A DNA stretch of 18,749 nucleotides from a virus (taxonomy: Duplodnaviria > Heunggongvirae > Uroviricota > Caudoviricetes), in the IMG/VR virus record IMGVR_UViG_2703718769_000007. One strand, written 5' to 3'. The position numbers and the translations under genes are program-made. The notes under the pieces are model-generated. The model saw only the letters and a program-made list of their open reading frames with translations, was not told the origin of the DNA and did no database searches. Each line of letters starts with the position of its first letter. Within the stretch, counting starts at the first letter, position 1. Below are positions 15,084-15,448 of the stretch, piece by piece.

Positions 15084-15410
15084 TCAGGGTGCAGAAGGAC
15101 TAAAGATAAACGTTTTCTTCACGCCTTTACACGGCCTGTCCTTCTCAAATCGCCATTTTGCCATCGCCTTTACAACCTGCTCATCAAACAGATGGTGCGG
15201 CTCTGAACGAATAAACTCAATTCGGGTGACAGTACCATCAGCACCAATATCAAACCTCACATCAACCCGTCCCTTTATATAATTTGCCGCTGCATAGGCC
15301 GGATATTGTGGTAATGCCTTAACCAACTGTCGGGGCATATCTGTTTTATGTTGCGTACAGCCCATAACCAGAGAAGACAACAAAATAATTAACGGAAGAT
15401 TTCTTTTCAT
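15084..15410 (-). CDS. Lipoprotein with TonB C-terminal-like domain (moron)
   Basis: MKRNLPLIILLSSLVMGC has a lipobox (LVMGC). Mature part ...LPQYPAYAAANYIKGRVDVRFDIGADGTVTRIEFIRSEPHHLFDEQVVKAMAKWRF... closely parallels the E. coli TonB C-terminal domain as I recall it. Start could also be ATG 15416 or GTG 15425. Local sequence looks AT-richer than the structural genes. Confidence 0.8.
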   Translation of the reverse strand: MKRNLPLIILLSSLVMGCTQHKTDMPRQLVKALPQYPAYAAANYIKGRVDVRFDIGADGTVTRIEFIRSEPHHLFDEQVVKAMAKWRFEKDRPCKGVKKTFIFSPSAP

Positions 15411-15426
15411 TTTCATTCCCCGCACA

Positions 15427-15448
15427 GATAAGAATAAGTCTTATTCTA
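15427..15448 (-). promoter_or_regulatory. Palindromic operator-like site (Fur-box-like) overlapping a candidate -10, upstream of the lipoprotein gene
   Basis: AGAATAAG-t-CTTATTCT (15431-15447) is a perfect 8-bp inverted repeat around one central base. Plus strand GATAAGAATAAGTCTTATTC matches 13 of 19 positions of the Fur consensus GATAATGATAATCATTATC by hand alignment. Minus-strand TAGAAT (15448-15443) could be a -10. Confidence 0.4.

Follow-up and report, generated by a model that had tools for sequence, protein, structure and literature searches.

A lipoprotein gene with a TonB C-terminal domain

We analyzed a stretch of DNA of 18,749 nucleotides (nt) from a virus of the Caudoviricetes (IMG/VR record IMGVR_UViG_2703718769_000007; the whole stretch is called the window below). 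It represents the late region of a lambdoid Escherichia coli prophage with HK97-type head genes. Between the lysis and the packaging genes lies a short minus-strand gene (15084-15410) for a predicted lipoprotein, the mature part of which is a TonB C-terminal domain. This gene, its protein and the family to which they belong are the subject of this report.

The minus-strand open reading frame (ORF) is real, and its stop codon is located at 15084-15086 according to the ORF list and the sequence. Three in-frame start codons are available, namely GTG at 15425 (113 residues), ATG at 15416 (110 residues) and ATG at 15410 (108 residues). The last of these follows a Shine-Dalgarno sequence that can be read directly from the DNA (GGGGA, 15417-15421, minus strand, 6 nt upstream), and it is also the start used in RefSeq for the corresponding "TonB family protein" of 108 residues (WP_000828072.1-type entries). 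We take the gene to be 15084-15410 on the minus strand, with 108 codons and a stop, on the evidence of the ORF list, the RefSeq homologue, the Pfam match and the selection analysis reported below. A preliminary description of this DNA had placed a lipoprotein of 109 residues at 15084-15448. The ORF and its predicted lipoprotein character stand, whereas the strand has to be given as minus and the length corrected to 108 residues; the interval up to 15448 takes in the leader (5' untranslated region) and part of the promoter.

The TonB C-terminal domain: sequence and predicted fold

The similarity of the mature part to the C-terminal domain of TonB, noticed earlier by eye, is significant in profile searches. 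The protein scores 55.4 bits against Pfam TonB_C (PF03544; cut-off 24.6, E=8.9e-15) and 55.1 bits against TIGR01352 (cut-off 27.1, E=7e-15). In a phmmer search of the PDB, it aligned without gaps to C-terminal domain chains of E. coli and Salmonella TonB (E~1e-15). Residues 26-108 correspond, again without gaps, to residues 153-235 of E. coli K-12 TonB (reference sequence taken from the K-12 genome) with 36% identity. The domain is encoded at 15087-15335 (minus strand) and is delimited by the alignment, an AlphaFold2 model and the fold match.

The AlphaFold2 model, which was calculated for a single chain from a 13-sequence family alignment, has predicted local distance difference test values above 90 from about residue 25 to residue 108. 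Superposition on TonB complexes, proposed as a check in the preliminary description, gave a close match: Foldseek placed the model on chain B of 2gsk (TonB bound to BtuB) with a root-mean-square deviation of 1.0 Å over 79 columns and a TM score of 0.92, and it also matched the model to 1u07 and to 2grx_C from the FhuA:TonB complex. As judged from the model, the closest structural match is the receptor-bound conformation of TonB, with strand beta3 free at the edge.

Key residues of the TonB domain are also kept. The YP motif is present (Y36 and P37, equivalent to TonB Y163 and P164), as are four of five aromatic residues (F53, F75, W86 and F103, equivalent to TonB F180, F202, W213 and F230; the fifth, Y215 in TonB, is replaced by Phe). 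Also retained, with hydrophobic residues in alternation, is the beta3 edge strand (about residues 94-103); in the 2GSK and 2GRX complexes, it is this strand of TonB that pairs with the Ton box. When 22 diverse family members are aligned, the residues P26, P34, Y36, G59, S69, P71, F75, W86 and P93 are invariant, together with the lipobox cysteine discussed below.

Outside this domain, the protein does not resemble TonB. It has neither an N-terminal anchor in the cytoplasmic membrane nor a proline-rich spacer, and a lipoprotein signal peptide takes their place. Because the anchor and the spacer are missing, the domain could not be energized by ExbB-ExbD. Scores against the NCBIfam equivalog models for TonB are far below the cut-off (73.6 bits at best versus 315), with the proper TonB proteins of enterobacteria being the most similar (E~1e-20). 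By score, fold and motifs, the protein is a member of the TonB_C family, and by anchor, spacer and equivalog score it is not a TonB energy transducer.

Lipoprotein signal and predicted localization

The N-terminus of the protein reads MKRNLPLIILLSSLVMG-C18-TQHK, with MKR followed by a hydrophobic stretch and the lipobox L-V-M-G-C18. The signal peptide of 17 residues (MKRNLPLIILLSSLVMG) and the predicted lipidated Cys18 (codon 15357-15359), followed by Thr at position +2, are encoded at 15357-15410 on the minus strand. The lipobox had been proposed from the sequence alone, and it agrees with the PROSITE lipoprotein pattern PS00013, which is matched by the window protein and by 19 of the 22 aligned family members; the Cys falls within positions 15-35, the n-region is basic and the h-region is hydrophobic. 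The lipobox Cys is invariant in the alignment. At +2, family members have T, S, A, V or G, and none of the 22 sequences has Asp.

According to the Lol sorting rule, a lipoprotein without Asp at +2 carries no signal for retention in the inner membrane and is transferred to the outer membrane. From this rule and the non-Asp residue at +2, we infer that the window protein would be an outer-membrane lipoprotein on the periplasmic face, in the inner leaflet and beside the receptors. The tether between Cys18 and the domain is only about 8 residues long.

Promoter and transcription

A putative sigma-70-like promoter is located directly upstream of the gene (15443-15470, minus strand), with a -35 element ATGACC (15470-15465), a 16-nt spacer and an extended -10 element TGtTAGAAT (-10 hexamer 15448-15443). 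It was identified by consensus match only (9/12 positions plus the TG extension). A candidate operator overlaps it at 15427-15447. It consists of a perfect 8-1-8 palindrome, AGAATAAG-T-CTTATTCT (15431-15447), which extends over the -10 hexamer and the likely start site, and of a 19-mer resembling a Fur box, which is described in the next section. The palindrome is intact in 63 of the 69 loci of the clade to which the window belongs (clade A). In the phage-21 clade, the sequence is kept up to AGAATAAGAC, and the second half of the palindrome is lost.

Perfect palindromes with 8-bp arms were counted by script, since an inverted-repeat search with a minimum length of 10 misses them. The window contains four, compared with 1.04 in composition-matched shuffles. 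The other three are TATAAACATGTTTATA (14238-14253) between TerS and the HNH endonuclease gene, possibly related to cos or terminase, the hairpin-like GGGAGGCGCACGCCTCCC (9811-9828) between the capsid and portal genes, and TCACTGCTTCAGCAGTGA (18727-18744) at the end of the window.

Published transcriptome data are available for a homologue that shares 71.6% identity with the window protein. In RNA-seq data of E. coli LF82, gene LF82_160/PERCE_65 of prophage Perceval (annotated as "TonB fragment") was among the genes expressed 8-fold above the prophage background, with log2 values of about 5-6.6 in all five conditions, compared with 2.3-4 for the adjacent Rz and terminase genes (PMC9928086). Since PERCE_65 is high while its neighbors are low, transcription of the family in lysogens does not depend on the late operon. 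By extension, the same would be expected for the clade of the window.

Fur boxes upstream of family members

For every non-redundant member of the family, we scored the upstream 160 nt for matches to the 19-nt Fur consensus GATAATGATAATCATTATC. For calibration, six established Fur-repressed promoters of E. coli K-12 were scored in the same way and reached 12-16 matches (tonB 12, fepA-fes 13, fhuA 14, cirA 14, entC 15, entS 16). Among background windows of 160 nt from the same loci, 6.1% reached at least 13, 2.3% at least 14, 1.0% at least 15 and 0.36% at least 16 matches. This test is conservative, because the background includes the sites themselves.

The best score of the family, 17/19, was found about 48 nt upstream of a chromosomal copy in Serratia grimesii (GGTAATGAAAATCATTATC). 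The Serratia prophage clade and the Salmonella clade reached 15-16/19, the latter with a perfect 7-1-7 core (TGATAATcATTATCA) 15 nt before the start codon. Scores were 12-14/19 in Klebsiella and Raoultella and 10-11/19 in Erwinia. In the Salmonella, Serratia and Klebsiella/Raoultella copies, the boxes are located 15-50 nt upstream of the gene. In the window, the best upstream match is GATAAGAATAAGTCTTATT (15427-15445, 13/19), which coincides with the palindrome and lies over the -10 hexamer; its score is within the 12-16 of the K-12 promoters.

These matches give good support for Fur control in the clades of Salmonella and Serratia and make it plausible in Klebsiella; for the copy in the window, where the match is marginal, they are no more than suggestive. 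The boxes upstream of the genes tie the family to the iron/TonB regulon, a link that is new in this analysis. Fur regulation of a moron has a precedent among lambdoid phages in stx1.

Two further observations concern individual sites. The near-consensus box AGTATTGATAATCATTATC was found at Salmonella-type viral contigs of the P0056 cluster (L105:3940-3975, and also at loci L103, L107, L111-L114 and L143). Within the window, two of the other four best Fur matches (13/19 each) are located at or just past the 3' end of the gene (15054-15072 and 15099-15117, plus strand). Three of the five top sites thus fall within 400 bp, which may simply reflect an AT-rich patch.

Distribution and selection

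Relatives of the gene occur in 1616 of 5426 complete E. coli genomes; a copy of the window's clade (at least 95% identity) accounts for about 414 of them and a copy of the phage-21 type for about 1201. Family members are also found in sequenced phages (Lys8385Vzw, Stx1a-converting phages, JLK-2012, phage 21, ev017, Perceval and a Klebsiella phage) and in at least 184 IMG/VR viral contigs. The scan of viral contigs first gave near-identical E. coli copies, and a Serratia-type leading query was used for diversity. One distant member (P0057) was recovered only on a 1.1-kb contig. Lipoproteins related more distantly were found in Salmonella enterica (on more than 1000 contigs), Klebsiella, Raoultella, Serratia, Erwinia/Pantoea, Rahnella and Gibbsiella.

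The position of the gene is conserved as well. In prophages of Serratia, Salmonella and Klebsiella, it again follows immediately after the lysis cassette, and the neighbors at this slot are unrelated, with endolysins of different kinds (Phage_lysozyme, GH19 with DUF2514, GH108) and different terminases. A conserved slot among unrelated neighbors is the behavior of a mobile moron cassette. Exceptions are one clade that adjoins DinI and a CI-type repressor, a Raoultella copy amid transposases, and a copy in S. grimesii. At one Salmonella-type locus, a gene for an IS605-family OrfB/TnpB protein (Cas12f1-like TNB domain; L111:5824-6990, minus strand) is located about 1.5 kb downstream of the family member.

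The S. grimesii copy (strain NBRC 13537, NZ_BCTT01000003.1, L007:5940-6318) is not part of a prophage. It resides in the chromosome, flanked by ycgN-like and dsbB/nhaB/fadR genes, which suggests that some Enterobacterales may have a family member as a resident gene of the iron regulon.

Names such as "TonB fragment" or "partial tonB-like" in the annotations imply that the gene could be a non-functional remnant of a captured host tonB. It does cover only the last third of TonB, and some database variants are frameshifted or truncated. In the copy of Shimwellia pseudoproteus (L005:5929-6342), the lipobox region is followed by an in-frame stop (…PKLL*SS…) and the C-terminus is divergent; it is apparently a pseudogene. 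The evolutionary data argue otherwise. Pairwise ratios of nonsynonymous to synonymous substitution rates (dN/dS) are 0.09-0.18, both within and between three clades. The lipoprotein signal peptide is a new acquisition relative to TonB, and its Cys is invariant across genera. The capture is not recent, because identity to the host TonB is only 36%, and the family is both widespread and transcribed. We rejected the remnant explanation on these grounds and regard it as hardly credible: the gene is real and under selection.

Genomic surroundings

The preliminary description had assigned the gene to the usual moron slot between lysis and packaging modules, and the annotation of the window confirms this position, with Rz/Rz1 on one side and the HNH endonuclease, TerS and TerL on the other. 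The gene and its promoter are contained in a patch of low G+C content (14950-15550; 0.42-0.44 versus 0.54-0.59 in the flanks) that is apparent from the composition profile.

Read along the minus strand, the genes upstream comprise the lysozyme (endolysin; 17668-18201), a KilAC-domain antirepressor (16699-17394; Pfam ANT, E=2.7e-28) inserted within the lysis cassette between endolysin and Rz, Rz itself (16003-16569) with Rz1 embedded in it (16065-16250), and an ORF of 73 or 74 codons directly after Rz and before the TonB-domain gene (15755-15976). This ORF is listed as "hypothetical protein" by RefSeq in near-identical prophages, and no Pfam or PADLOC match was found for it. On the downstream side, a DUF3950 gene (YlcI/YnfO family; 14752-14952, plus strand) is convergent with the TonB-domain gene and separates it from the HNH endonuclease gene (14345-14710, minus strand). 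TerS (13504-14097) and TerL (11846-13507) follow, also on the minus strand.

The order of the head genes beyond TerL is unusual (7211-11782, minus strand). TerL is followed by a fusion of prohead protease and major capsid protein of 645 residues (9845-11782; Peptidase_S78 and Phage_capsid), the portal gene (8269-9633) and an ORF of 353 residues (7211-8272) that overlaps the portal gene by 4 nt. The annotation of the near-identical prophage in E. coli E110019 gives the portal region as a single frameshifted pseudogene. At the end of that prophage (L160:9833-11960), the type III effector gene nleA and a frameshifted ospG-family kinase gene are found beyond the tail-fiber genes, and the element is therefore a lambdoid prophage of the type that exchanges effectors among enteropathogenic (EPEC) and enterohemorrhagic E. 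coli. Rfam gave no match anywhere in the window.

This location raises the question of a late function in lysis or release, either as an Rz1-like spanin or as a shield of the progeny from receptors on cell debris. The best PHROG match is phrog_1267, "Rz-like spanin" (E=1.3e-42), and the gene has the orientation of the late operon and directly follows the lysis cassette, with no convincing terminator in between. A complete Rz/Rz1 pair is already present, however, and the homologue in LF82 is transcribed in lysogens when Rz is not. The protein was rejected as a spanin, being encoded by a separate gene about 590 bp downstream of Rz/Rz1 and consisting of a globular TonB domain and not of a short proline-rich o-spanin. 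It was also rejected as a u-spanin, since it ends right after beta3, with no hydrophobic tail or C-terminal transmembrane segment. The PHROG label is most likely an annotation carry-over from position and lipobox, and we consider a late role of either kind very improbable.

Downstream of the gene, no intrinsic terminator was found in the window, and the 141 nt that follow it do not fold better than shuffled sequences (z=-0.07). The Serratia prophage copy has a strong terminator 3 nt after the stop codon.

Proposed function

We propose that the protein is an unenergized, outer-membrane-tethered binder of Ton boxes that competes with TonB and so dampens the TonB-dependent entry of phages and colicins. 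We assign this reading a probability of about 0.45. Its support comes from sequence, structure prediction, distribution and one transcriptome. All of the computational checks suggested in the preliminary description turned out favorably for the decoy reading made there, which is thereby supported in part.

In the proposed mechanism, the Lol pathway would deliver the prophage-encoded lipoprotein to the outer membrane's inner leaflet, where a complete TonB C-terminal domain would be displayed on its short tether at the place where Ton boxes emerge. This domain would bind the Ton boxes of TonB-dependent transporters, and perhaps those of group B colicins, by beta-strand addition to its beta3 edge, as TonB does. 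Genuine TonB would face a competitor, and TonB-dependent traffic would decrease. In exchange for some loss of siderophore uptake, the lysogen would be shielded from phages that depend on TonB (T1/phi80 type), from group B colicins and from microcins. The protein would be expressed in the lysogen from a promoter of its own; in several clades, a Fur box at this promoter would confine its production to iron starvation, the condition in which receptors reach their highest numbers. An experimental precedent exists in that TonB-dependent iron import is reportedly inhibited when a periplasmic TonB domain is overexpressed (Howard et al., 2001, as cited in PMC9841981). Another precedent is the use of outer-membrane lipoproteins by phages against FhuA from its periplasmic face, as with T5 Llp and Cor.

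A wider version of the same idea is offered tentatively, and we hold it to be rather doubtful. It would see the family as a natural dominant-negative TonB that temperate phages have spread across Enterobacterales (Escherichia, Salmonella, Klebsiella and Serratia), derepressed through Fur in many lineages, and that may occupy the Ton boxes of every TonB-dependent receptor simultaneously when these are made abundant by iron starvation. The result would be a generic, receptor-independent exclusion of phages, colicins and microcins.

A number of observations weigh against a Ton-box decoy, and several of them bear on the identity of the binding partner. The position of TonB Q160 is occupied by Leu in the window copy and by Arg, Ala, Thr or Val in other clades, the position of TonB R166 is Tyr in nearly the whole family, and the family has a conserved motif of its own, SEPxHLFD, where TonB has AKPANMFE. 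With these contact positions replaced and a family-specific motif in place, the partner could be a different one. The same fold might then serve to bind something else, such as peptidoglycan, a different protein of the envelope or, in a protein of an incoming phage or a bacteriocin, a segment that resembles a Ton box, and the likeness to TonB would reflect ancestry only. The model also shows a low-score fold likeness to domain III of TolA, which binds different partners. Against another partner speak the receptor-bound TonB conformation as the closest structure, with beta3 free at the edge, the fact that sequence similarity is highest to enterobacterial TonB proper, and the Fur boxes, which link the family to the TonB regulon. 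We consider a different partner improbable.

The regulatory evidence is not uniform across the family either. A strict search of the window, allowing at most 3 mismatches to the Fur consensus, found no site, and the 13/19 of the window's box is reached by about 6% of the background windows. The phage-21 clade has no Fur box (10-11/19). Expression of the LF82 homologue was flat and not iron-responsive in the published data (PMC9928086), which fits the lost half-palindrome of that clade. Databases contain a fair number of phage-21-type variants in which beta3 is replaced or removed by a frameshift near the C-terminus; they could reflect recurrent loss of function (perhaps through a cost of carriage), assembly errors or an alternative form. 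Such variants include P0010, P0012, P0013, P0016, P0018, P0019 and P0021, and the P0012 cluster alone comprises 130 member sequences.

Searches with the PADLOC-DB 2.0 defense-protein models gave only a chance-level match (E=0.038). The C-terminus of the prophage J protein is lambda-J-like (about 51% identity to J of lambda imm21) and not of the HK022/phi80 or FhuA type, and a cor gene is absent from this prophage. Self-exclusion in the manner of Llp and Cor, with a TonB-dependent receptor used by the phage itself, was considered and is not indicated, because J is lambda-like and cor is missing, weak evidence as this is.

An inhibitor of iron uptake that is made during iron starvation also looks costly for the host, and the chromosomal copy of S. 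grimesii suggests a physiological role in the host. For these two reasons, an accessory role in host iron homeostasis is a serious rival, even if we judge it unlikely. The tethered domain would then bind Ton boxes or the signaling domains of receptors under iron starvation, where it might tune, gate or prioritize transporters or modulate FecA-type signaling, and the gene would be a fitness moron. The strong Fur boxes of several clades, including that of the non-prophage S. grimesii copy, are in favor of such a role, as is the presence of sitABCD metal-uptake morons in Perceval, which also has a homologue of the gene. A domain without a link to ExbBD, on the other hand, cannot power transport, and we know of no positive role for an unenergized TonB C-terminal domain. 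Most copies reside in prophages, at a slot typical of exclusion and virulence morons. The sole experimental precedent, as reported in PMC9841981, was inhibitory.

Implications of the proposed TonB competition

Many phages, group B colicins, microcins and siderophore-antibiotic conjugates (cefiderocol-type "Trojan horses") enter the cell mainly through TonB-dependent receptors. If the decoy function is true, about 30% of sequenced E. coli, including many Shiga toxin-producing and EPEC strains, would carry a phage-borne and possibly iron-regulated brake on TonB-dependent entry. The host range in phage therapy and the competition by colicins and microcins in the gut would be affected, and susceptibility to siderophore-drug conjugates could shift. 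Exclusion would act at the common energy-coupling step and not receptor by receptor as for Llp and Cor, and the protein would be a natural tool for probing the recognition between TonB and the Ton box.

The family as such is already known by annotation, as "TonB family protein", as "TonB C-terminal domain protein" in phage 21 and as "TonB fragment" in LF82 Perceval, and a homologue has been listed as an expressed moron. In our full-text literature searches, no study came up on the function of a TonB C-terminal domain in a phage protein or a lipoprotein. The preliminary statement that no exclusion protein of this architecture has been characterized therefore agrees with the searched literature; the novelty that it implied does not extend to the gene, which is widely annotated.

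Comparison with known systems

The C-terminal domain of E. coli TonB (about residues 153-235; PDB 1U07, 2GSK with BtuB and 2GRX with FhuA) belongs to the same family and has the same fold. Unlike TonB, the window protein is predicted to be anchored in the opposite membrane and to be uncoupled from ExbB-ExbD, and it has other residues in place of Q160 and R166.

Engineered periplasmic TonB fragments are likewise composed of the TonB C-terminal region without the energy-coupling part (Howard, Herrmann, Stratilo and Braun, 2001, J Bacteriol 183:5885, via PMC9841981). As described there, they are soluble, overexpressed laboratory constructs identical to TonB, whereas the window protein is natural, diverged, predicted to be lipid-anchored and under selection.

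Llp of phage T5 and Cor of phi80, N15 and HK022 are small outer-membrane lipoproteins of phages as well. They act on FhuA from the periplasmic side and exclude superinfecting phages. Llp acts allosterically on the plug and loops of FhuA and is receptor-specific, whereas a decoy built on the TonB domain would act on Ton boxes in general. No Pfam or PHROG match indicated a relationship to Llp or Cor, and BFVD, which holds Llp-like folds, gave no viral structural match at E<=1e-3. The window protein is not a member of the Llp/Cor family, its fold being that of the TonB C-terminal domain.

Bor/Iss of lambda is also an outer-membrane lipoprotein moron, located in the slot between Rz and cos/terminase, and the two genes are neighbors in phage 21. 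Bor differs in having an unrelated fold and the opposite strand, and it is linked to serum resistance. The direct homologues of the window protein are CPT_21_73 of phage 21, PERCE_65 of Perceval and a "TonB family protein" of Klebsiella phage ST13-OXA48phi12.4 (71.6% and 41% identity), which share both its genomic position and its lipobox.

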